A stretch of 21,429 bases of DNA from a virus. Position 1 is the stretch's first letter; every line of letters starts with the position of its first letter. The stretch is taken from IMG/VR virus record IMGVR_UViG_3300014059_000004; one strand, 5' to 3'. The translations under genes were made by a program, and so were the position numbers. Positions 2,256 to 11,287 of the stretch are shown one piece after another. The notes under the pieces were generated by a model. It was not told the origin of the DNA, ran no database searches, and saw only the letters and a program-made list of their open reading frames with translations.

Positions 2256-2543
2256 ATGGACACCACGGGACTGCACCTCCTCAACCAGCTCTACATCATC
2301 GGAAGCGACAGTGCACTGAAGGCTGCGATGCAGCACCCGGACTGGGACGCTGGTTTCGATGCAGCGCTTCGGTTCAATGAACTTCCGTTTCGTCGGAAGG
2401 ACGTGTCTGACCTGGTCCTCCTGGCGTACCTCATCTCCGACCTCAGCTGTGAATTTTCCGTCGATGAGGATGGTCGACTGGTGTGTGAGTCACAGTACGA
2501 ATCGTGCGTTTGGTCTGACGGCATGTGGGTTACCGTCGACTGA
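2256..2543 (+). CDS. 95-aa hypothetical protein
   Basis: Unit TGAACGctcacggcTGAACGAGGTATACTagactcATGG; followed by palindromic element A. Confidence 0.7.
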   Translation: MDTTGLHLLNQLYIIGSDSALKAAMQHPDWDAGFDAALRFNELPFRRKDVSDLVLLAYLISDLSCEFSVDEDGRLVCESQYESCVWSDGMWVTVD

Positions 2544-2640
2544 TCACGTGAGGCCCACCGTTTAATCATCCGGATCAGTTAATGGTTACATACCTTCCGG
2601 CACCGTGATTAAACGGTGGGTCAACGGTGGGCTTCTCAGC
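2544..2640. repeat. Palindromic repeat element A (15-bp perfect inverted repeat CCCACCGTTTAATCA / TGATTAAACGGTGGG, 37-nt spacer)
   Basis: Inverted repeat arms at 2554-2568 and 2606-2620. Contains an ATCCGGAT palindrome and the boxes CACGTGAGGC and GGGTCAACGGTGGGCT that are shared with elements B and C. Confidence 0.75.
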
Positions 2641-2690
2641 AATTCATCTTCATTGTGAACTGCCGCAGCGATTCATGGTATACTAGAACC

Positions 2691-2951
2691 ATGGCAACCA
2701 AGCTGACTCTCACAGAAGTCAAGGTGCAGTTTCCCGGTGCTTGGGAATCGGAAATCGCAGGCCTGGATCCTGAGGATATCATGGATCTCCTGGGTGATAT
2801 GGCAGCCGGGGAATCGGAATACTGGGTTCACAACGGTACACTCTACGGACGCTCATGGTGGACTGCGCTTGGGTGGCACTACGGTGAATGGGACGGGACT
2901 TCTTGGTTCTGCCCGAATGCAGGGGAGGAAGTGTGTCCCTGGGGTGAGTGA
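2691..2951 (+). CDS. 86-aa hypothetical protein (MATKLTLTEV...)
   Basis: ATGG 6 nt after TATACT (tcATGGTATACTagaaccATGG). The track ORF 2616-2951 has an N-terminal extension that runs through repeat element A, which I rejected. Confidence 0.65.
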   Translation: MATKLTLTEVKVQFPGAWESEIAGLDPEDIMDLLGDMAAGESEYWVHNGTLYGRSWWTALGWHYGEWDGTSWFCPNAGEEVCPWGE

Positions 2952-2991
2952 CGCGGTGTAAATCATCGGCGATCTAGGTTATACTAGGCTC

Positions 2992-3327
2992 ATGGACACT
3001 AAGGCGAAGAAGGTTCGCAACTTCGTGGCGATCGCCATGGAGAAGCGTTGGGGCAAGAAGAGCAACGTTCACCGTCACCGTGCAGATCGTCGACCGAAGG
3101 ACGCTCGTCGTCACTGGTCCCGCGAGGAAGGATTACAGAGATGTGCCAATGTTTCACAATCGGCGGACCGTTCATCGGTGCTGACCCTGATTGCGCAGTT
3201 CACGGGGACGATGCGCAGGAACGCGATCGAGCGTTGGATTCACGGTTCGATGAGCTTCACGAGGAGATTGCACTTCTCCGGATGGAGATTGGGACTCTCC
3301 GCGATCTTCTCCAGGCACGAACTGTGA
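2992..3327 (+). CDS. 111-aa basic hypothetical protein (3' half overlaps an alternative frame)
   Basis: Unit ...ctaGGTTATACTaggctcATGG; N-terminus MDTKAKKVRNFVAIAMEKRWGKK is plausible; stop TGA inside a GTGAAT box. Confidence 0.4.
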   Translation: MDTKAKKVRNFVAIAMEKRWGKKSNVHRHRADRRPKDARRHWSREEGLQRCANVSQSADRSSVLTLIAQFTGTMRRNAIERWIHGSMSFTRRLHFSGWRLGLSAIFSRHEL

Positions 3328-3341
3328 ATCCTAACTCCTGA
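3141..3341 (+). CDS. 66-aa acidic coiled-coil protein in alternative frame
   Basis: ATG with GGAAGGA 8 nt upstream; product MCQCFTIGG...DELHEEIALLRMEIGTLRDLLQAR is very protein-like; stop TGA inside the next cTGAAAGAGG box. Confidence 0.4.
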   Translation: MCQCFTIGGPFIGADPDCAVHGDDAQERDRALDSRFDELHEEIALLRMEIGTLRDLLQARTVNPNS

Positions 3342-3359
3342 AAGAGGTATACTGAGATC

Positions 3360-3686
3360 ATGGCAATCGTCGACGCAGTGGTCATCAACGCAGCGAAGTT
3401 CCTGTGGAGTGGGAAGGTGGGCACGGCAGAGCTCTCGGATCTCCACGAGCAGGCTGTTGCAGAGCGTTGGGTCGATGTTCCGCGAGTCATGACGCTTGTG
3501 AACTTGTCGCGAGGAACGAAGCGAGTCTTCGCCGATCGCCGTGTCGTGAAAGACGATGGGGGTGATCCCGCTGGATGGTCCTGGACTTGCACTTCAGATC
3601 CCAACATGCAGGTCATCATCTACAACGATTTACGGTGCAACGTCACCCCTGAAAGAGGTACAGTAAGATCATGTCCAGTCCCCTGA
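3360..3686 (+). CDS. 108-aa hypothetical protein
   Basis: Unit cctGAAAGAGGTATACTgagatcATGG; the 3' end overlaps the next unit and start by 16 nt. Confidence 0.6.
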   Translation: MAIVDAVVINAAKFLWSGKVGTAELSDLHEQAVAERWVDVPRVMTLVNLSRGTKRVFADRRVVKDDGGDPAGWSWTCTSDPNMQVIIYNDLRCNVTPERGTVRSCPVP

Positions 3687-3898
3687 TGCTGCAGACCGAC
3701 TTCGAGATTCTCATCGACAACATCACAGATCTCGTGGAGGACGAGAGCAGGCTGCGCGCCATCTTTGCTGGTGAAATCATGCATGCACTCCACGATGGTC
3801 GCAAAGCGGTGCTGCTTCTCAGGAAGATTGCACCCTTCGTCAACGAGAGCACCGGTGGTGAGGTTGCTCGTTTTTTGAGCGATCTGGAACAGAAGTGA
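3671..3898 (+). CDS. 75-aa hypothetical protein
   Basis: Unit cctGAAAGAGGTACAGTaagatcATG; stop TGA inside a GTGAAC box. Confidence 0.65.
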   Translation: MSSPLMLQTDFEILIDNITDLVEDESRLRAIFAGEIMHALHDGRKAVLLLRKIAPFVNESTGGEVARFLSDLEQK

Positions 3899-3930
3899 AC
3901 AGTCAGACCTTAAAGAGGTACAGTAAGATC

Positions 3931-4224
3931 ATGGCACGGATCAACTGGTCGGAACCTAACGATATCGGCCGCAGCAATGCAATCTTCACCACGGAAGCAG
4001 CAGCTGGTTGGGAGGTGTATACCTACGATGCCTGGCCCGATCGGATCGAAGTCAACGCTCCTCAGTCGAGTCGTGTGAACATCGAGATCGAAGTCTCACG
4101 AGAGGAAGTTCGCGTATACGGTGAACATGCCTCGCGAGGTTACGGCGAAGCTTCTCCTTGTCAAGTGTACATCCCGTTCGAAGTGATGCGTTGCATCGTG
4201 GAATGGCAGGCTGCGCACCAGTGA
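3931..4224 (+). CDS. 97-aa hypothetical protein (MARINWSEP...)
   Basis: Unit GTGAACagtcagaccTTAAAGAGGTACAGTaagatcATGG at 3895-3933. I rejected the track's N-terminal extension 3895-. Confidence 0.65.
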   Translation: MARINWSEPNDIGRSNAIFTTEAAAGWEVYTYDAWPDRIEVNAPQSSRVNIEIEVSREEVRVYGEHASRGYGEASPCQVYIPFEVMRCIVEWQAAHQ

Positions 4225-4256
4225 ACAGTCAACCTTGAAAGAGGTATATTAAGACC

Positions 4257-4445
4257 ATGGCTGCTCCCTACAAGCGCGGAACGAAGCTGCAGTACGTCGG
4301 TGCACATCACAGTCATGGTCCCGTCACTTACGTGAAGTGGCATGGTTTTCTTCGAGGAGCACTCATCACCGTGCGCTTCCCGGACGGGGTGAAGAGAGTC
4401 GTTCACGTGGACGAAGTCTACCCGGTTGTGAATTTACCCTCGTGA
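4257..4445 (+). CDS. 62-aa hypothetical protein
   Basis: Unit GTGAACagtcaaccTTGAAAGAGGTATATTaagaccATGG at 4221-4259. Confidence 0.65.
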   Translation: MAAPYKRGTKLQYVGAHHSHGPVTYVKWHGFLRGALITVRFPDGVKRVVHVDEVYPVVNLPS

Positions 4446-4463
4446 AAGAGGTATACTGAGATC

Positions 4464-4697
4464 ATGGACAAGGCAACGTTGAACCGGTTGTACAGCGATT
4501 ACCATGCTCAGATCGTCCTCTTGGCACGTGACCTCAAGGAGGTGAAGCGCAGCTTGGACACGATCGTTCACATCCGTGAGCAGCTCATGCTCGAGGCCGT
4601 CCATTTCGAGGAGGAACTTTTGGAGGAAGGCAGCGACGAAGTGCAAAACCTCATCGATGTCATCCCGCTTCTCCAGATGGAAGTTGACGATCGCTGA
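4464..4697 (+). CDS. 77-aa acidic coiled-coil protein
   Basis: Unit GTGAATttaccctcgTGAAAGAGGTATACTgagatcATGG. Confidence 0.7.
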   Translation: MDKATLNRLYSDYHAQIVLLARDLKEVKRSLDTIVHIREQLMLEAVHFEEELLEEGSDEVQNLIDVIPLLQMEVDDR

Positions 4698-4733
4698 GTG
4701 AATCTTCACCCCTGATTGAGGTATACTAGAACC

Positions 4734-4940
4734 ATGGACACCAAGCAACTCGCTGCGAAGGCCGCCAACGCCATCTCCGACCTGGTCCTCGAGGATGAGT
4801 ACACTGTCGACATCGACCAGGTGGTGGGTGGTCTTGACGACGACGGAAAGTTCACAATGGAGAAGTTGTTGACCATCAACACCAAGCTTGTGTACGAAGT
4901 CACCGTGACCGCGAAGGTCGTGAACCTCGACGACGAGTGA
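4734..4940 (+). CDS. 68-aa acidic hypothetical protein (MDTKQLAAKAANA...)
   Basis: Unit GTGAATCTTCACccctgattGAGGTATACTagaaccATGG at 4698-4736; I rejected the track's N-terminal extension. Confidence 0.7.
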   Translation: MDTKQLAAKAANAISDLVLEDEYTVDIDQVVGGLDDDGKFTMEKLLTINTKLVYEVTVTAKVVNLDDE

Positions 4941-5379
4941 AAAGCTTCCCCTCCTTGTGGTATACTTAACTTATCTTAAAGCTTGCTGGAATGAGGGTGC
5001 GCACCAGGATAAAAACTCACTCCCAATGCCGAGCACTGTCGAAAAGGTTCCGGGTAGGAACGCCTGCAAGGGTGCACAGTGAATCGATTCGGTTCGACTC
5101 CGAAGCTTGGCTCGAAGAGATCGACGGTTGGTCACCGTCGGTTGAATCCCTGGGTGATCCAAAGCTGGCTGACCACTTGCATTAAATCACCCAGGAAAGT
5201 CTCATTCGTCTAGTTGGACCAGGACGCCGGCGTCAGTCGGAGACGGAGGATCATAGCCTCCATGAGACGCAACTGTGAAAGAGAAGCGCAGGTTCGAATC
5301 CTGCTCGCCGGGCGATTGCCAGGCGAAAGTGTCGAAGACGGTGCACGCTCTTGCTAACTCACCTCATGAGGAGCACAGA
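4941..5379 (+). ncRNA. Structured non-coding island behind an extended -10 promoter (TGG-TATACT, 4958-4966), carrying tRNA-like modules
   Basis: No credible ORF. Three T-loop-like motifs: GGTTCGACTCC (5091-5101), GGTTGAATCC (5140-5149) and GGTTCGAATCC (5291-5301). A 10-bp stem CCTGGGTGAT/ATCACCCAGG (5149-5158 and 5185-5194). An anticodon-like hairpin GGAGG-ATCATAG-CCTCC (5245-5261, CAT in the loop). A candidate class-II-length tRNA at 5028-5112, where acceptor GCCGAGC pairs 7/7 with GCTTGGC including one G-U pair. The 3' module 5288-5312 (T-arm plus acceptor strand) is 18/18 identical to the T-arm of tRNA-like gene 926-996. Confidence 0.35.
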
Positions 5380-5601
5380 ATGGAATTTCCGAAAGTTACT
5401 CTACCGATTGATCCCGAGCTGGTGCAGACTACCATCAACATTCTGCACGACTTCATCGCCGAAAAAACTCGCGAGGCGTGGGTGGCTCAAGAACTCTTGA
5501 AGTTCATCAGGAGCACATGTCCCCACAAGAACGTTAAGCGCGACGGCGACATGTGCTCCGAATGCGGGTATACCCAGTACAACAACGATCCGAACTATTA
5601 G
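5380..5601 (+). CDS. 73-aa protein with C-terminal CxxxK...CxxC metal-binding motif
   Basis: ATG with GAGGAG 7 nt upstream (classical SD). The track ORF 5275-5601 has an N-terminal extension through the tRNA-like T-arm (RRFESC), which I rejected. Confidence 0.5.
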   Translation: MEFPKVTLPIDPELVQTTINILHDFIAEKTREAWVAQELLKFIRSTCPHKNVKRDGDMCSECGYTQYNNDPNY

Positions 5602-5603
5602 AC

Positions 5604-5864
5604 ATGACTGACGAGCAATGCACTTTCTGCGGGCAGCGGAAGAGTGGAACGCTTAAGCCAGTGATTCTCACCAATCCGGGCGAGGGATGCACGTACGGCT
5701 TGAGGCACGAGTGGGTGCAGATCTCTGTGAAAAGAACTGCAAGGCCAAAGTACACCGTCCCGCCGAAGTGGCGTCCCTCGTGGCGAGAGGCATGGTCAGA
5801 ACTGTTCATGTGTCGCTTTGATCATCGATGTCGTCGGCTGATATCTGTGAACTGCTCGAGCTGA
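5604..5864 (+). CDS. 86-aa Cys-rich hypothetical protein (MTDEQCTFCGQ...)
   Basis: ATG 3 nt after the previous stop; stop TGA inside the next cTGAACGAGG box. Confidence 0.45.
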   Translation: MTDEQCTFCGQRKSGTLKPVILTNPGEGCTYGLRHEWVQISVKRTARPKYTVPPKWRPSWREAWSELFMCRFDHRCRRLISVNCSS

Positions 5865-5882
5865 ACGAGGTATACTAGAACC

Positions 5883-6152
5883 ATGAAGATCATCATCGCT
5901 GGCGTCCCCAACGAAGGCAAGACGACCATTGCCCAGTTCATCACCCACGCTCTTCGCGATGCCGGGTTCGCTGTGAATCACACAGATTGTGATAGCGGTC
6001 TCGTGGCGGACGAAGCCTCAGGCCTCCAGCGCAGCCGCCTCGAGGCAGTGGGCAAGAGGCTCGGACCCATCACCGTGGCGACCACTTCCATTGGCCGCTC
6101 GGGCTGCACGGTGATCATCCCACCGCCCGAAGGTGGTTTACCATTGGTCTGA
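5883..6152 (+). CDS. 89-aa P-loop (Walker A GVPNEGKTT) protein, probably truncated
   Basis: Unit cTGAACGAGGTATACTagaaccATG. The Walker A motif is at residues 7-14 with no recognisable Walker B. The last ~8 codons and the stop are encoded by the repeat box GGTGGTTTACCA..TCTGA, shared with the 3' end of ORF 10643-10981. Confidence 0.6.
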   Translation: MKIIIAGVPNEGKTTIAQFITHALRDAGFAVNHTDCDSGLVADEASGLQRSRLEAVGKRLGPITVATTSIGRSGCTVIIPPPEGGLPLV

Positions 6153-6200
6153 CATGATGATTAAACCGTGAGGCTTCTGTGGGCTGCAGTTTAATCATCG
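6153..6200. repeat. Palindromic repeat element B (11-bp perfect inverted repeat GATGATTAAAC / GTTTAATCATC, 22-nt spacer)
   Basis: Arms at 6156-6166 and 6189-6199. The spacer carries CCGTGAGGCTTCTGTGGGCTG, related to elements A and C. Confidence 0.75.
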
Positions 6201-6241
6201 CTGAAGTGAACGTTGGTCTCGGTGCGAGGTATACTAGAACC

Positions 6242-6487
6242 ATGAAGACTCTCACTGCTCGGTCCATGTGTCGGTGGATTGGAAACCGTGTTCGTCTGAA
6301 GCCGAACGTGAAGGAAGGATGGAAGGAAGAGTTTGGTACGTACGAGGGTGCTTCTGGTAACGGGTGCTGCATTGTCACAGTCGACGAGAAATACCGTGAC
6401 GGAAAGCTGGACGACGGCGTTCGTGAAGTGACGTACGACCAGATCGAGAAAATCTACGTTCCTGGGCAGCGTGCGCCCAAGGTGTGA
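6242..6487 (+). CDS. 81-aa hypothetical protein (MKTLTARSMCRW...)
   Basis: Unit GTGAACgttggtctcggtgcGAGGTATACTagaaccATG. I rejected the track's N-terminal extension through element B. Confidence 0.65.
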   Translation: MKTLTARSMCRWIGNRVRLKPNVKEGWKEEFGTYEGASGNGCCIVTVDEKYRDGKLDDGVREVTYDQIEKIYVPGQRAPKV

Positions 6488-6521
6488 ATCATTCACGTAG
6501 GTGAGGTATACTAGGATCATG
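6484..6521 (+). promoter_or_regulatory. Representative promoter unit: palindromic -35-like box GTGAATCATTCAC, then GAGGTATACT, aggatc, ATGG
   Basis: 13-bp perfect palindrome GTGAAT-C-ATTCAC at 6484-6496 overlapping stop TGA 6485-6487. TATACT at 6507-6512, 6 nt before ATG 6519. Confidence 0.6.
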
Positions 6522-6809
6522 GACCCCATCGTCGGCGGACGTGTTCAGAAGACGTGTTCGAACTGCAAGAAGTTTGTGTACATCACGGTCGAAGAAGATG
6601 AAAACCTGATCGGATGTCACGTGCTCTGCCAGCGTTGCGATGCAGCGTACTATTCCTGGCGAGTGCGCACCTGTGGTGTATATGTCGATACCTTCCTGAA
6701 GTCTGTGGAGGCAAAGCGGGCGCGACCTGTGAAGCCACGGGCCAAGAAGTTGCACAAGAAGCGCTCGGCGGCGCAGCGGAAGGCAGATCGCGCGAAGTGC
6801 GGCGGCTGA
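6519..6809 (+). CDS. 96-aa zinc-ribbon protein, paralog 1 (CSNCKK...GCHVLCQRCD)
   Basis: Conserved unit. About 50% identical over ~60 aa to the next gene: KTCSNCKKFVYITVEEDENLIGCHVLCQRCDAAYYSWRVRT versus KSCSNCRKMVYLTERDAKHVVGCYLFCERCDIAYYDWKMRT. Confidence 0.7.
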   Translation: MDPIVGGRVQKTCSNCKKFVYITVEEDENLIGCHVLCQRCDAAYYSWRVRTCGVYVDTFLKSVEAKRARPVKPRAKKLHKKRSAAQRKADRAKCGG

Positions 6810-6846
6810 AGTGCAACGTCCCTCGGGAAAGGGGTATACTAAGATC

Positions 6847-7086
6847 ATGGACATCGCGAGCATCACCAATATGACGTGGAAGTCTTGTTCGAACTGCAGA
6901 AAGATGGTATACCTCACCGAGCGTGATGCTAAGCACGTGGTTGGTTGTTACTTGTTCTGTGAACGTTGCGATATCGCCTACTACGACTGGAAGATGCGAA
7001 CGGGCAATGCACTTGCTCAGGTCTTCCTGGCGTCTGTCGAAGCCAGACGAGCGCGGTTGCCTCGTTACGCACGAAACTACTTCTGA
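6847..7086 (+). CDS. 79-aa zinc-ribbon protein, paralog 2 (tandem duplicate of 6519-6809)
   Basis: Unit GGGAAAGGGGTATACTaagatcATGG; paralogy read directly from the translations. Confidence 0.7.
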   Translation: MDIASITNMTWKSCSNCRKMVYLTERDAKHVVGCYLFCERCDIAYYDWKMRTGNALAQVFLASVEARRARLPRYARNYF

Positions 7087-7123
7087 GGTGTAACCTCTCC
7101 ACTGAAAGGGGTATACTAAGATC

Positions 7124-7558
7124 ATGGCCACCAAGAAGAAGAACGATCTGGTTCAGATGCTCGAGAACCGCGCCTGGGATTGCACCGTGGGCGCTGGAAT
7201 CACGGACGAAGACGACGTTCCCTCGTACCAGAAGGAGTGCCGTCGCAACGTGGAGAGTGAACTTGGCCGTGCCCTGACGATGGAAGAGGTCAACGCGTTC
7301 TGGGACGCCTGGAAGCGTTGCATGCAGGAGATCGCTCAGCCTTTAGGAGGTGAACAGTGTCTCACACGAACTACCGTCGGAAGCCTCGCGGGCGTCACAA
7401 GAACGAAAAGTTCGCTTGGAAGAATGCAAGTGCATGGCGGCAGATCATCGTCCAGCAGGAGCGTGCTGCCTCGCGGATCGTGGTGTACACCAACATCGTT
7501 CGAGTTCCGGTACCGAAGCGCATTCCGCGACCGTGGTAGTTACTTATCGGCATCATGA
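7124..7558 (+). CDS. 144-aa ORF (MATKKKNDLV...); the C-terminal ~65 aa is low-complexity and overlaps the 7357 gene
   Basis: Unit cacTGAAAGGGGTATACTaagatcATGG. The first ~80 aa are plausible. No in-frame stop until 7558. Confidence 0.45.
   Translation: MATKKKNDLVQMLENRAWDCTVGAGITDEDDVPSYQKECRRNVESELGRALTMEEVNAFWDAWKRCMQEIAQPLGGEQCLTRTTVGSLAGVTRTKSSLGRMQVHGGRSSSSRSVLPRGSWCTPTSFEFRYRSAFRDRGSYLSAS
7357..7539 (+). CDS. 60-aa basic protein with GTG start and strong SD AGGAGG
   Basis: AGGAGGtgaacaGTG; GC3 is higher than in the overlapping frame; a TGA closes this frame immediately upstream. Confidence 0.4.
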   Translation: MSHTNYRRKPRGRHKNEKFAWKNASAWRQIIVQQERAASRIVVYTNIVRVPVPKRIPRPW

Positions 7559-7815
7559 CGATGCCGCACTATTCACCGCCGAAGCAGAAGCCGCCAGCTG
7601 AACCTCAGAAGAAGCAACTCTTCGGCGATGCACCCCCAGCCACTTGCCACGTGGTGATGCGGAAAGATCCAGGTCTCGGGTGGTCTCCCATCGCGGTCTT
7701 CAGCAGCGGTGAACCTGCGTTGAAGCACGCAGAAGACTTCATGGAGAAGATGCAGGCCAAGAGACCCGATCTGGAGCTTCGGATTGAAGACAGGATTCCG
7801 CTGATCAGCACGTGA
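7555..7815 (+). CDS. 86-aa proline-rich hypothetical protein
   Basis: Track ORF with good GC3; no conserved unit and a weak RBS. Confidence 0.5.
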   Translation: MTMPHYSPPKQKPPAEPQKKQLFGDAPPATCHVVMRKDPGLGWSPIAVFSSGEPALKHAEDFMEKMQAKRPDLELRIEDRIPLIST

Positions 7816-7855
7816 AAGAGTGCAACGTTCCACCTCACAGTGGTAAACTAGAATC

Positions 7856-8107
7856 ATGGAAGAGTTCATCACCTACCGGTGCCCGGACTGCGGCGGACCC
7901 TCGCATCCCGCTTCTGGGTGCCAGTACACCGAGACCTACGTGGTGTGCGGACCTTGCACCCGGCGAGCCTGGAAGTGGATCATTTCACAGGTGAACGGAA
8001 AAGGTCGCCGGAACGGGATCAACTTTTACGACCACGTGAACCGGATCGCACCTCCCATCAGTGCAACATCCACCACGAACGAGGTACAGTTAGATCATGG
8101 CTGCTAA
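7856..8107 (+). CDS. 83-aa zinc-ribbon protein (CPDCGG...CGPC)
   Basis: Variant unit GTGAAAGAGtgcaacgttccacctcacagtGGTAAACTagaatcATGG. The C-terminus ...TNEVQLDHGC is encoded by read-through of the next promoter unit. Confidence 0.65.
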   Translation: MEEFITYRCPDCGGPSHPASGCQYTETYVVCGPCTRRAWKWIISQVNGKGRRNGINFYDHVNRIAPPISATSTTNEVQLDHGC

Positions 8108-8348
8108 AAGAGGTAACGGGTTCATCGATTACAAACCGACCATGTCCGACATCAAGGAGAATGCACTCGCAAAGATCCGTGATGCATCCTGGGACGTATC
8201 CATGCTGGAAGGTGACCTTTCGGACAGGGGTTTCCCGGAGGTTGCACTTCGCTACGAGGCAATCCAGAAAAAGCTGGAGGAGTTGGAGGCCGAGCTCCGC
8301 AAGCTTCCGCTGTTACACACCGTGCACATCAACCCTTCCTTAGCTTAG
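8097..8348 (+). CDS. 83-aa hypothetical protein with C-terminal coiled coil
   Basis: Unit cacGAACGAGGTACAGTtagatcATGG; stop TAG inside the CCTTAGCTTAG box. Confidence 0.65.
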   Translation: MAAKRGNGFIDYKPTMSDIKENALAKIRDASWDVSMLEGDLSDRGFPEVALRYEAIQKKLEELEAELRKLPLLHTVHINPSLA

Positions 8349-8386
8349 CAGTGAATATTCTTCGTTAAAAGAGGTACAGTAAGACC

Positions 8387-9241
8387 ATGGCAATCACCAC
8401 CACCTACGGGAATCCCCGCAACGGCGATCAGGTTACCACGATCAACTTCGAAGGTCGCGTGGTCTCGGTCGACAATGTCACCGAGCGTCGGAACTGGAGC
8501 GACACGCTGGACTACAGCGACTGGCGGATGACTGACTGCACCATCGCCACTGTGTACCTGGGACGCTACGGTGCCAAGAACACCTACGATCGCTACGATG
8601 CTGCCACGATGCCCCGCGAGCGCTACGGGGCGCTGGTGGCTGACAAGCGTCGGTCGCCCATCGTGGAACTTCCCGTTCACGAGCGCTTCCTGGAGGTCGA
8701 CGTGACGAACATGTGGGCATGGCGCACTGGCAAGGTCGACGTAGCGGTCGCCGATGCGGACGAGGCCACGTATCCCGAGCTCAACCACGATTACGCAGAG
8801 TACATGGCTCACATCGCCAACGAGCGGAAGCGTGACGAGGAACGTCGGCGTGCCCGAGAGGAGGCCGAGCTGGCTGAGCGCATCCGTGAGGAAGAGAACC
8901 GACCGGTCATCGGGAAGAAGATGATCGTGGCTCGTGGTCGCAAGGTGAAGGTCGGAACTGTGGGCACGGTTGCATTCGTCAGGGACGGTAGCGTCCTCCT
9001 GAAGCCCGATGCCACGTGGACGGATCGGAAGGTCGGCGGTGTCTGGGTGCAGGCTCACAACCTGGAGCTTCGTCGGCCGTGCACTGCTCACGAGGATTGT
9101 GCAGCCTCGCCCGAGCTGGGTGAAGCTTGCGTCGGTCAGAAGCACATCCACCTCTTAAACGAGGCCCACTCGGGCTTCACAGAAAAACTTTGGGTTATTG
9201 GATGGGGATTACCACCATCCGGACTCAAGGCGACACCGTGA
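8387..9241 (+). CDS. 284-aa hypothetical protein with central charged ER/K-rich helix and C-terminal C-x2-HEDC motif
   Basis: Unit GTGAATattcttcgTTAAAAGAGGTACAGTaagaccATGG. Longest gene of the array. The C-terminus RRPCTAHEDCAASPELGEACVG is shared with ORF 13707-14135. Confidence 0.75.
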   Translation: MAITTTYGNPRNGDQVTTINFEGRVVSVDNVTERRNWSDTLDYSDWRMTDCTIATVYLGRYGAKNTYDRYDAATMPRERYGALVADKRRSPIVELPVHERFLEVDVTNMWAWRTGKVDVAVADADEATYPELNHDYAEYMAHIANERKRDEERRRAREEAELAERIREEENRPVIGKKMIVARGRKVKVGTVGTVAFVRDGSVLLKPDATWTDRKVGGVWVQAHNLELRRPCTAHEDCAASPELGEACVGQKHIHLLNEAHSGFTEKLWVIGWGLPPSGLKATP

Positions 9242-9291
9242 GGCCCGAGAGTGAAGTGAATCTTCGGAAACGAACGAGGTATACTAGAACC

Positions 9292-9531
9292 ATGAACAAC
9301 ACCTACGATCACGCTGCTGCGTTGTGGGCTCTCGGAACGCACATGGGTGATGAGGCCCGTGAGATCAATGCGTTGGTCGACCAGCTGAGCGAGAAGATCG
9401 CCAAGCTCGACAGTGCAAAGCTTCCAGTAGAGGTTCGCGTTCAGATCTTCTCGCACGTCACCAAGATCTGTGCACTCTCCCACGAGGCCAAGGATCTGGA
9501 GAAGCTTCTTTGCGATCCCACGTGGGAGTGA
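9292..9531 (+). CDS. 79-aa hypothetical protein (MNNTYDHAAALWALG...)
   Basis: Unit GTGAAGTGAATCTTCggaaacGAACGAGGTATACTagaaccATG; I rejected the track's N-terminal extension 9127-. Confidence 0.65.
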   Translation: MNNTYDHAAALWALGTHMGDEAREINALVDQLSEKIAKLDSAKLPVEVRVQIFSHVTKICALSHEAKDLEKLLCDPTWE

Positions 9532-9563
9532 AAGATCGTCTCTGAAAGGGGTATACTAGAACC

Positions 9564-9746
9564 ATGGAAACCATGAAGACCCTTAAGCGAATCGTCGTCC
9601 GCACTCGGTGGGAAGGCTGCAACGTCGACCTGAAGTTCACTGTCGACGAGATGAAAGAGGCTCGTCGCATCTGCGCCTGGATCAACAGCGGTGCAACTGA
9701 GTTCGGAGCCGCGAAGATCGTCAAGGTGTTCGCGCGGTCGAAGTGA
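9564..9746 (+). CDS. 60-aa hypothetical protein
   Basis: Unit GTGAAAGatcgtctcTGAAAGGGGTATACTagaaccATGG. Confidence 0.6.
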   Translation: METMKTLKRIVVRTRWEGCNVDLKFTVDEMKEARRICAWINSGATEFGAAKIVKVFARSK

Positions 9747-9781
9747 ACAGTCCCTCCTGAAAGGGGTATACTAAGATCATG
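9743..9781 (+). promoter_or_regulatory. Representative promoter unit GTGAACagtccctccTGAAAGGGGTATACTaagatcATGG
   Basis: -35-like GTGAAC (overlapping stop TGA 9744-9746), 17-nt spacer containing TGAAAGGGG, TATACT at 9767-9772, ATG at 9779. Confidence 0.6.
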
Positions 9782-10099
9782 GCCCGGAAGAAGAGCTACA
9801 ACCCCGAGAAGCGACAGTGGCGCGGTGCATCTTACAAGGCAGGCCGCGAGCGAATCGCGGTTCTCCGTGAAAAGGCGCACCGCGAGGTGCAACCCGCCGA
9901 GACGCTCTTCACCTGCCGGTGCTGCGGTGAATCTTCTCGAGGCCTGACGGACGGGACGTTCTTCAACCCAGGCTGGGGTCGGATCGATCGGATCGACGGC
10001 CCGAATGCAATCTGCCCGGAGTGCATCGCGGATCCCCATGCTCTTGATGGCCTGAAGGAAGACGGGTTCGAGAGTGCGGCAGTGAAACTTCTCTCCTGA
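9779..10099 (+). CDS. 106-aa zinc-ribbon protein (CRCCG...CPEC)
   Basis: Conserved unit; N-terminus MARKKSYNPEKRQ is basic. Confidence 0.65.
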   Translation: MARKKSYNPEKRQWRGASYKAGRERIAVLREKAHREVQPAETLFTCRCCGESSRGLTDGTFFNPGWGRIDRIDGPNAICPECIADPHALDGLKEDGFESAAVKLLS

Positions 10100-10117
10100 A
10101 AGAGGTATACTGAGATC

Positions 10118-10435
10118 ATGGACATCTACGGAATCGCACTTCACTCGGCCCTGGAGCGTCGGAAGCACCTCGCAGCAGTGCTCGCAGTGCAGCTCCAGAA
10201 CCCGCTGCTGAGCCGCGCGGCAGCGAAGACGGGTGAACAGATCTTCGTCGTGGATCGGATCATCGAGGACCTGGAGACGGACATCCTGAAGCGCTGTGCA
10301 ACTTCCCTCCCGAATGAGGTACAGTTAGATCATGCTCCACCAAACGATTCGCAAAGCCAAGATCCAGTCCACCTCCGGACATCCCAAGCCCTTCATCGTC
10401 TTTCGTTCCGCGAAGCTCACCCCCGTCTCTGGTGA
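10118..10435 (+). CDS. 105-aa ORF that reads through an internal promoter unit (…PNEVQLDH…)
   Basis: Unit GTGAAActtctctccTGAAAGAGGTATACTgagatcATGG. The frame continues through the GAGGTACAGTtagatcATG unit at 10315-10334 and overlaps the next gene by 100 nt. The 3' ~35 codons are doubtful. Confidence 0.5.
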   Translation: MDIYGIALHSALERRKHLAAVLAVQLQNPLLSRAAAKTGEQIFVVDRIIEDLETDILKRCATSLPNEVQLDHAPPNDSQSQDPVHLRTSQALHRLSFREAHPRLW

Positions 10436-10589
10436 CACCAAGTTCCAACCCGGTGATACGGTGCAAATTTGGTTCGACTCAAGCATCTCATTCACCTCAA
10501 ACGTCAACGACGCATCAAAGCACCTCATTCGCAAAGATAAGTCAGACACGGGTGAAATCTGGTCGTGGTTAGGTTACGTCTCATCTTAG
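10332..10589 (+). CDS. 85-aa hypothetical protein
   Basis: ATG 6 nt after TACAGT of the internal unit; stop TAG inside a CTTAGCTTAT box. Confidence 0.55.
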   Translation: MLHQTIRKAKIQSTSGHPKPFIVFRSAKLTPVSGDTKFQPGDTVQIWFDSSISFTSNVNDASKHLIRKDKSDTGEIWSWLGYVSS

Positions 10590-10642
10590 CTTATCTTCTT
10601 CCCGCGATGCAATGTTTCCACTGAAAGAGGTATACTGAGATC

Positions 10643-10981
10643 ATGGCCGCTACATTCAAGATCATCCCGGGCAGCATGTTCAAGGCGCAGTACGTGGAGG
10701 CGTTCGAGTGCGTCGACAATGACGAGCTCGACCTGGAGATCGAGGAGCCGTTCACTTTCGGTGAGGTGTCGATCCCCGGCCACGGGAAGCGTGGGTGTCT
10801 CGTGATGAGCTCCACCAAGAAGCCAGGGTGGTTCTACGACGAGGACGATGGGTGGCAGCGTGTACCGAGCGGTGAGACCTTCATCGAGGTCACCAGCACC
10901 GGCCAACCGGTGGCCAACACAGGGAAGCCCAGGGCTGCACGGTTAAACCCGTGCGGTCAAGGGGTGGTTTACCACCTCTGA
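10643..10981 (+). CDS. 112-aa hypothetical protein; C-terminus encoded by repeat element C
   Basis: Unit cacTGAAAGAGGTATACTgagatcATGG. The last ~15 codons contain hairpins GCACGG-ttaaac-CCGTGC and GGTGG-ttta-CCACC plus the shared box GGTGGTTTACCAcctcTGA. Confidence 0.65.
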   Translation: MAATFKIIPGSMFKAQYVEAFECVDNDELDLEIEEPFTFGEVSIPGHGKRGCLVMSSTKKPGWFYDEDDGWQRVPSGETFIEVTSTGQPVANTGKPRAARLNPCGQGVVYHL

Positions 10982-11020
10982 ATAATCAAAGGGCTCACGT
11001 GGGTCAACGGTGGGCTCGAA
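10937..11020. repeat. Palindromic repeat element C (shares GGTGGTTTACCA with B and GGGTCAACGGTGGGCT and CACGTGGG with A)
   Basis: Direct comparison of sequences 10937-11020, 2544-2640 and 6128-6200. Confidence 0.7.
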
Positions 11021-11071
11021 ACTCGCTCTGTTTCCGTGCAACGGTGATTGTAGCTGAGGTATACTAGACTC

Positions 11072-11287
11072 ATGGCACAGCTCATCTCTCCGGACGACGT
11101 TCCCCGTGACATTCTCAATGCGCTGGCACCTGACACAGACCTGGATGAACTGTGCTTCTACGTGGCAGATGGAGAGTACTATTACCTCGCGAACCACGAT
11201 GACACTGTCGCGTTCAAGTTCACCGACAAGTGGGTCGAAATGGATTGGGATGCATTTCTTACCGAGATACGCACTTCCTCGCGGTGA
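11072..11287 (+). CDS. 71-aa acidic hypothetical protein
   Basis: Unit gtagcTGAGGTATACTagactcATGG. Confidence 0.65.
   Translation: MAQLISPDDVPRDILNALAPDTDLDELCFYVADGEYYYLANHDDTVAFKFTDKWVEMDWDAFLTEIRTSSR

Follow-up and report, generated by a model that had tools for sequence, protein, structure and literature searches.

A family of conserved palindromic modules at gene 3' ends in the small-gene array of a metagenomic phage contig

The DNA analysed here (hereafter the window, 21,429 nucleotides (nt) of the viral record IMGVR_UViG_3300014059_000004) belongs to the metagenomic contig Logan SRR1145916_13777 (92,121 bp), of which about 35 kb were examined. Between positions 160 and 14,666 it carries an array of small genes in which a promoter-like sequence abuts the start codon of each unit, and at three places in this array an open reading frame (ORF) ends within a palindromic element, designated A, B, or C (Table 1). 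These three elements form one family of strongly conserved gene-end modules, and their sequences supply the last codons and the stop of the ORFs that run into them.

Table 1. Positions (in the window) of elements A to D, the ORFs that end in them, and the promoter-like units in their vicinity
Feature	Position	Strand	Description
ORF upstream of A	2256-2543	+	95 amino acids; last codons ..MWVTVD* overlap the box
Element A	2525-2633	+	Box GTGGGTTACC 2525-2534; stop of ORF 2256-2543 in CTGA 2540-2543; TCACGTG 2544-2550
Element A, long hairpin	2554-2620	+	Perfect 15-bp arms 2554-2568 / 2606-2620, inner CCGGA/TCCGG stem, 37-nt loop
Element A, TGATTAAAC box and G-rich core	2606-2633	+	
Next promoter and putative leaderless ATG after A	2655-2693	+	GTGAAC-N18-TATACT-N6-ATG
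ORF upstream of B	5883-6152	+	89 amino acids, Walker-A-like N-terminus; tail ..EGGLPLV* encoded by the box
Element B	6132-6199	+	Box GGTGGTTTACCA 6132-6143; stop of ORF 5883-6152 in CTGA 6149-6152
Element B, inverted repeat	6156-6166 / 6189-6199	+	11-bp arms GATGATTAAAC / GTTTAATCATC
Element B, invariant core	6156-6184	+	GATGATTAAACCGTGAGGCTTCTGTGGGC
Equivalent promoter unit after B	6206-6244		
Element D (probable member, degenerate)	9146-9250	+	Inside the 3' end of ORF 8387-9241; ..CCACCTCTTAAACGAGGCCCAC.., GGGGATTACCACC 9211-9223, CCGTGAGGCCC with stop TGA 9239-9241
Equivalent promoter unit after D	9256-9294		
ORF upstream of C	10643-10981	+	112 amino acids; ends ..GQGVVYHL*; last ~17 codons in the conserved element
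Element C	10933-11017	+	Hairpin 10933-10958 within the ORF
Element C, box hairpin	10960-10979		AGGGGTGG-TTTA-CCACCTCT; last base is the T of stop TGA 10979-10981
Element C, remainder	10995-11016 (core)	+	AATAATCAAAG, then the 22-nt core TCACGTGGGTCAACGGTGGGCT
Equivalent promoter unit after C	11036-11074		
Example promoter units	4221-4259, 9743-9781		

All three elements share a colinear plan, in which a stop-proximal hairpin box (GTGG[G/T]TT(T)ACC) is followed by a CTGA holding the stop codon of the upstream ORF, by an AT-rich TGATTAAAC box, and finally by a G-rich core composed of two boxes, CGTG(A)GG and GTGGGCT, that are 11 nt apart in A, B, and C. The AT-rich box is degenerate in C, where it reads TAATCAAAG, and an inverted copy of it is added in A and B, resulting in a long hairpin with perfect 15-bp arms in A and 11-bp arms in B, and the shared words lie where a first-pass annotation of this sequence had placed them. 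The same annotation considered the three loci to be members of one modular palindromic family, which is supported both by the common plan and by shared words far above chance. GGGTCAACGGTGGGCT occurs exactly twice in the window (2618 and 11001), 0.24 matches with up to three mismatches being expected and none of 100 shuffles reaching two; GGTGGTTTACCA is likewise found exactly twice (6132 and 10963; 0.02 expected), and GTTTAATCATC three times (2560 and 6189 on the plus strand, 6156 on the minus strand; 0.24 expected). The proposed list of shared modules stands for these three words but not for CACGTGAGGC, which taken alone is not above chance (four matches versus 2.4 expected). A relaxed form of the box, GTGG[GTA]?TT[TA]?ACC, has only three matches in the window, all of them on the plus strand (0.15 expected; reached by none of 300 shuffles). 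When the hairpin of A is removed, the pairwise alignment scores of A-B and A-C top the distribution obtained for other pre-promoter regions, the B-C score being weaker. Without positions 2551-2618, A is identical to C 10995-11016, i.e., A 2544-2550 joined to 2619-2633 gives the 22-mer of C. The 68-nt hairpin block that makes the difference has GTG at both borders and is fixed in all orthologues of A; the neighbouring AACGGTGGG recurs in its arms, so that an old insertion or an inverted duplication could have produced it.

The distance between the box and the TGA is 5 nt in C, 6 nt in A, and 7 nt in B, and the same motif is therefore read in all three frames, yielding the endings ..WVTVD* (A), ..GGLPLV* (B), and ..VVYHL* (C). 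It had been claimed that a 12-mer supplies the last codons and the stop of two unrelated ORFs, those ending ..EGGLPLV* at B and ..GQGVVYHL* at C, in different frames. This is correct, and it is strengthened by the finding that A behaves in the same way, that stops shift over conserved nucleotides in relatives, and that a further, degenerate element (D, see below) is also read into.

Relatives of the window are metagenomic contigs found by exact-protein look-ups and three homologue searches, with flanking proteins 63-100% identical to those of the window. Every contig that carries a flanking gene has the element at the same place, which amounts to five distinct lineages for A, eight for B, and seven for C. 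In A, 7 of 111 columns are variable (0.06), compared with 33 of 176 in the ORF (0.19) and 19 of 24 in the following spacer (0.79); in C, the corresponding values are 16/89 (0.18), 112/146 (0.77), and 14/19 (0.74). The core of B has no variable column among 29 (0.00) versus 0.38 for the ORF and 0.86 for the linker, although the box (0.23) and the 3' arm (9/17, 0.53) of B are less well kept. Comparison of the window with L021, the most divergent relative, likewise reveals the elements as islands of conservation. Because both flanks are variable, a recent exchange of a large block does not explain these islands, and the nucleotides of the elements themselves appear to be under selection. As far as can be judged from these alignments, the constraint is on nucleotides rather than on protein, because the box is read in three frames, the stop of B shifts among relatives, and the stop of D has been lost in the lineage of the window.

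The families of the ORFs ending in B and C illustrate this point. Members of the ORF 5883 family end in DGG*, ..LPLV*, ..LPLVDHDD*, or ..LPLVDLDD* over nearly the same DNA, the stop being placed at three different positions over conserved nucleotides, which implies that the tail is not what is conserved. ORF 5883 had been thought to be truncated, and specifically by a recent insertion this is not supported, as its homologues are uniformly short: all five clusters comprise 85-93 amino acids from a common start, with a single call reaching further upstream, and longer relatives were not found. Its Pfam and PDB matches are weak and cover residues ~1-50 only of P-loop kinases of 180-215 amino acids, and any truncation predates the whole clade. 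A search of ten neighbouring proteins against Pfam and PHROGs yielded only the weak Walker-A hit. In the ORF 10643 family, the motif ..P(K/R)AARLNP(R/C)G..V(V/D)Y(H/R)(L/H) is kept in 8 of 8 clusters, and the codons GCT GCA CGG TTA AAC CCG show zero synonymous change in seven lineages; a scan of JGI metagenomes with this family returned one locus only.

Gene content next to the elements varies between relatives. The gene downstream of B is absent in four of them (L023, L028, L030, and L033), and C is followed by a different gene in almost every lineage. Despite this swapping of downstream genes, the elements remain linked to the gene upstream and to the -35 side of the promoter that follows. 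Among the orthologues of C, the distance between the core and the next -35 is 11, 13, 21, or 33 nt, and the distance to the upstream stop is kept.

ORF 8387-9241 ends in element D, which is probably a decayed fourth member of the family. A third copy of ACCGTGAGGCC had been noted at the stop of this ORF; the word itself (at 9235) is at chance level when taken alone, as is the similarity of D within the window, and it is the context of D that supports the claim. The L021 orthologue (269 amino acids) stops at CCACCTCTGA, a 10-mer identical to that of C, and downstream of it lie ~145 non-coding nucleotides that include hairpins centred on CACGTG as well as a GGGGATTACCACC box and CCGTGGGTCA. The local alignment between D of L021 and C of the window scores 29, which was reached by one of 1000 shuffles. 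In the window lineage, CTCTTA occupies the position of the L021 stop, and the ORF runs on for 29 codons to a TGA in CCGTGAGGCC. This locus shows how an ORF can gain an element-encoded tail, namely by loss of its stop and not by insertion. The gap after the 269-amino-acid gene in L021 (8956-9100) also contains two GGGTCAC-NNNN-GTGACCC hairpins around CACGTG, both of which are lost in the window lineage.

The array into which the elements are set contains at least 33 strict and approximately 36 relaxed copies of GTGAAY-N18-(G)GTATACT-N6-ATG. Since each promoter-like unit abuts the start codon of a small gene, leaderless mRNAs are implied. In most units, the stop of the upstream ORF falls within the promoter that follows. 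Ten of the stop-to-ATG gaps measure exactly 32 nt, with the TGA inside the -35 GTGAAC, four others measure 18 nt, and the gaps at A, B, and C (147, 89, and 90 nt) are exceptions in the array. The promoter consensus offers stops at -35, -21, and -7, i.e., in three different frames. TGA is present at -35 in 21 and at -21 in 19 of the 33 units, TAA, TAG, or TGA at -7 in 31 of them, and all three frames are closed in 20 of 33 promoters versus 3% of random windows.

Considering the single orientation of the elements, their position at the stop, their long-spacer inverted repeats, and their linkage to the upstream gene, our best guess, offered tentatively, is that they are fixed boundary modules with a gene-end role at the level of the transcript. 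A, B, C, and the decayed D would then be lineage-specific, vertically inherited non-coding modules that separate the end of an early gene from the promoter that follows, and the upstream ORFs would run into a module and use its stop just as they appear to run into the next promoter elsewhere, which would make the gained tails incidental. The weakest step is that the modules would act on the transcript as gene-end structures. Through termination, processing, or a block to exonucleases, they may generate the 3' end of the upstream message or shield it, and they may uncouple this message from the next cassette, with the invariant single-stranded boxes possibly being read by a phage or host factor.

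RNA folding provides partial support for such a role. The predicted fold of A has a free energy of -49.6 kcal/mol (z = -4.5 against shuffles) and that of C a z-score of -3.5; three hairpins of C are compatible with 7 of 7 lineages, 95.8% of the cells being paired, several changes on one side of a stem in C and A still allow a G-U pair on the plus strand, and a single compensatory cell (G-C to A-U) is found in the box hairpin of C. However, a number of results weigh against a structure acting in the transcript. The fold of B (z = -1.45 only) is not better than that of shuffles, covariation shows no excess in a shuffle control, and the relatives are all fairly close, their low diversity limiting every structural test. 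The 3' arm of B carries uncompensated changes in L021 and L030 while the 5' arm and the core are invariant, implying that the hairpin is not what is selected in B, and the loop of A is as conserved as its stem, which fits recognition of the primary sequence on DNA as well as on RNA; taken together, the two observations suggest that selection is largely on primary sequence. Terminator function, which the first-pass annotation had raised, finds no terminator-like site at A, B, or C in its favour: none of the three has a U-tract (their tails read UCAACGG, GCUGAAG, and GAAUAAU) or matches the terminator pattern. Terminator-like sites are not above background anywhere in the phage, and the pattern may thus not be relevant for its host. 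In the Rfam search, only a tRNA passes the gathering threshold in the window, and nothing credible is found at A, B, or C at E <= 10; tRNA scans, too, were negative for the elements. A more specific form of the transcript-level role, which we consider unlikely, is that the terminating ribosome would unwind the small hairpin, the stop always lying 5-7 nt after it in whichever frame, and that the invariant boxes, bound by a factor, would then set transcript ends or insulate cassettes, which would make the elements a new type of phage gene-end signal.

The main rival explanation, possible although on the improbable side, is that the elements are double-stranded DNA binding sites for a phage or host protein (an operator or roadblock, stoperator-type or iteron-like), in which the two GTGGG boxes, one helical turn apart, and TGATTAAAC would be recognised. 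The 29-nt core of B, invariant irrespective of its pairing partner, the loops conserved like stems, and the constant box spacing would all be expected of such sites; moreover, TCACGTGA and CTCACGTGGG are palindromic, and in all three elements of the window 19-21 nt separate the end of the core from the following -35. However, it is the distance to the upstream stop that is kept in the orthologues of C and not the one to the -35, and inverted-repeat spacers of 22 and 37 nt are unusual for dimer sites. In addition, no DNA-binding domain is found among the called genes of the 35 kb, and the motif words show neither an excess nor a strand skew elsewhere.

The first-pass annotation had favoured mobile palindromic copies, either similar to miniature inverted-repeat transposable elements (MITEs) or repetitive extragenic palindromes (REPs), or a homing-endonuclease target, inserted into the 3' ends of pre-existing genes. 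Modular paralogous copies with inverted repeats in A and B (which do not lie at the ends of the conserved unit, C having none) are in line with this proposal, as are the clean 68-nt block flanked by GTG by which A differs from the core of C, the CTGA on both sides of the inverted repeat of B, and the presence of HNH and GIY-YIG genes elsewhere in these phages. We nevertheless regard it as quite unlikely. No empty site is found in any relative at the three loci (five, eight, and seven lineages, with flanking proteins down to 63-75% identity), a result that the annotation itself had listed as refuting its proposal. Only three or four copies, all on the plus strand, are present in ~35 kb of the contig, and the called genes of this region have no annotated transposase, RAYT, or integrase domain. 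Repeats that could be target-site duplications differ in length and sequence (CTGA around the repeat of B, GTG around the block of A, and nothing comparable at C). Copies of the B and C cores were not found in IMG/VR, and a gapped B/C-type pattern matched 185,579 bacterial and archaeal genomes at only 30 scattered places in unrelated taxa, none of which resembled the elements on inspection. The apparent purifying selection on the elements and the uniform shortness of the ORF 5883 family also argue against recent insertion.

We assign an equally low probability to the idea that the elements are decayed promoter cassettes, i.e., scars of cassette deletion or fusion whose present function is secondary, although such an origin is possible. 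Using a weight matrix of the 33 promoters, B 6161-6199 (TTAAAC-N18-TGCAGT-TTAATC-ATC) ranks 12th of ~42,800 non-training positions and the box plus stop of B 162nd overall; GGTTTACC is one base from GGTATACC, the near-palindrome of the -10 region, positions 10583-10606 hold another stretch that resembles a decayed promoter, and cassette gain or loss at promoters is frequent. On the other hand, A and C rank ~1000 or worse, an nhmmer profile search recovers no element even at E <= 1000, and neutral scars should not be the most conserved parts of their neighbourhoods. An attC-like recombination site, by which a recombinase would move the upstream gene as a cassette, is very improbable: integron attC sites have cores (RYYYAAC ... 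GTTRRRY) around an imperfect palindrome after each cassette and depend on the IntI integrase, and B, at the 3' end of a small ORF and overlapping the stop in some relatives, does read ATTAAAC ... GTTTAAT, one base off at each core, but only 3-4 of ~50 cassettes have an element, A has the boxes in opposite order, C lacks the cores, the 35 kb hold no integrase domain, and synteny breaks in promoters rather than in elements.

Several narrower candidates were also tried and rejected. An activator site at a fixed distance from the next -35 holds in the window and not in the orthologues of C; a minus-strand promoter in C (TTGACC-N17-TATTCA) is, on reading the sequence, not common to A or B; and a fossil promoter has weight-matrix support for B only and a negative profile search. 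Read-through of the UGA of B by a structure similar to a selenocysteine insertion sequence (SECIS) would add only three more residues before a TAA, and relatives show plain stop shifts. The elements have no similarity to the two tRNAs of the window that would indicate a tRNA or attP fragment, and G-rich words show no excess or strand skew as would be expected of a Chi-like site.

The elements are not members of the REP/bacterial interspersed mosaic element (BIME), MITE, T7 RNase III site, or intrinsic-terminator families and do not appear to be promoter early stem-loops (PeSLs) either; closest in behaviour are REP/BIME, PeSLs, and T7 RNase III sites. In enterobacteria, REPs are imperfect palindromes that lie in the transcribed strand where genes end, often a few nt from the stop. 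They number in the hundreds, in either orientation, and RAYT transposases are associated with them; they reportedly stabilise upstream mRNA or interfere with translation termination. Like REP/BIME, the phage elements are short imperfect palindromes in mosaic units at gene 3' ends, but they have three or four copies in one orientation, no RAYT was seen, copies in bacterial genomes were not found, and there is no sequence similarity. T7 RNase III sites, which are present in early and late transcripts, are related long imperfect hairpins between co-directional genes and leave a protective 3' hairpin. The phage elements also represent a few related and conserved predicted hairpins between co-directional genes, A having a predicted ~23 bp in two coaxial stems; however, neither B nor C has a stem that extends over two helical turns. 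The stoperators of cluster A mycobacteriophages are 13-bp sites in ~20-30 copies bound by the phage repressor; they share with our modules an asymmetric conserved sequence, a location in short gaps at gene ends, and one orientation relative to transcription, whereas the modules are 60-110 nt long and few. MITEs are similar in being small and non-coding with inverted repeats (here in A and B), but presence/absence polymorphism, a consistent target-site duplication, and a partner transposase were not found for the elements, which exist in very few copies. PeSL cassettes of T4-like phages consist of a stem-loop and an early promoter between small variable early genes (PMC2839356, PMC4122927). As in PeSLs, a stem-loop can be combined here with an early promoter between small variable genes, and genes are gained, lost, or swapped between related phages at the repeated regulatory sequence, with the breaks on promoters. 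In contrast, the PeSL stem-loop is a terminator-like part of most units, and here only 4 of at least 36 units carry a module, the breaks are in the promoter and not in the module, and the genes are leaderless.

Should the boundaries of transcripts or of translation really be set by the modules, this would reveal how a phage can punctuate a long array of leaderless single genes that is otherwise without room for terminators, and would provide a clean example of non-coding signals that dictate the C-terminal tails and stops of proteins unrelated to each other. In annotating phage genomes, a short 3' end common to unrelated ORFs can be regulatory DNA into which the ORF reads and does not necessarily reflect homology, a truncation, or the insertion of a transposon. 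The cassette architecture around the elements deserves at least as much attention as they do.

Blocks of similarity to L021, L023, and L009 start or stop at promoters or start codons (4464, 4734, 5883, 6242, 6519, 9779, 10118, and 11072), and whole genes, such as gene 6242-6487, which is missing from the four relatives named above, are present, absent, or swapped at promoter boundaries. This turnover looks like modular shuffling at repeated regulatory sequences, comparable to that at the PeSLs of T4-like phages.

As to the source of the DNA, the whole window had no match by megablast among 50,697 phage records, and exact-pattern scans of IMG/VR with the promoter consensus, the B core, and the C core returned zero matches each. 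An exact IMG/VR scan with a 16-mer of the window gave five stray single matches in unrelated contigs, which were taken as chance without inspection. A scan of bacterial and archaeal genomes with the promoter pattern found nothing, and a literature search with the promoter string found nothing relevant. The contig contains a sigma-70-family gene, an HNH gene, and many small ORFs without a Pfam hit, and comparison of the sigma factor was uninformative with regard to the host. Because no phage record is a near match, the IMG/VR patterns are uninformative, and the gene content is as described, we treat the source as an uncultivated phage, probably with a lytic lifestyle. With its extended -10, GGTATACTAG, the promoter conforms to the GNTANANTNG type described for Corynebacterium, a possible hint of an actinobacterial host.

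Some further features of the window were observed. A promoter unit at 4937-4966 with a TG-extended TATACT has no ATG after it and lies upstream of a tRNA-Met-like gene (5227-5313, 87 nt) that was called by ARAGORN only and has its T-arm in common with tRNA-Phe; it is the tRNA-Phe gene at 926-997 that passes Rfam gathering. At 10560-10612, just ahead of the promoter of ORF 10643, whose -35 is ATGCAA instead of GTGCAA, GTGGTTAGGTTACGTC..CTTAGCTTATCTT looks like a promoter of the CTTAGCTTATACT subtype that has decayed. Where the plus-strand array and the minus-strand genes converge, the gap (14667-14968) contains at least eight copies of AAATTTCAC(G), some of which form CACGTG-centred palindromes, as well as G+C-rich hairpins followed by T-rich tails (GGGGTGG-aacggg-CCGCCCC-TTAAATT, ~14670-14697), and these may represent operator or iteron repeats and terminators, respectively. 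CACGTG, which is part of elements A and C and of these repeats near 14.8 kb, occurs 18 times in the whole window, approximately three times the number in mononucleotide shuffles, the only control used. Beyond the gap, four tandem paralogous genes of ~200-267 amino acids lie on the minus strand (14969-17482) with a DNA repeat period of ~600 nt; neither Pfam nor PHROGs gave a match for them, and relatives carry different numbers of these genes.

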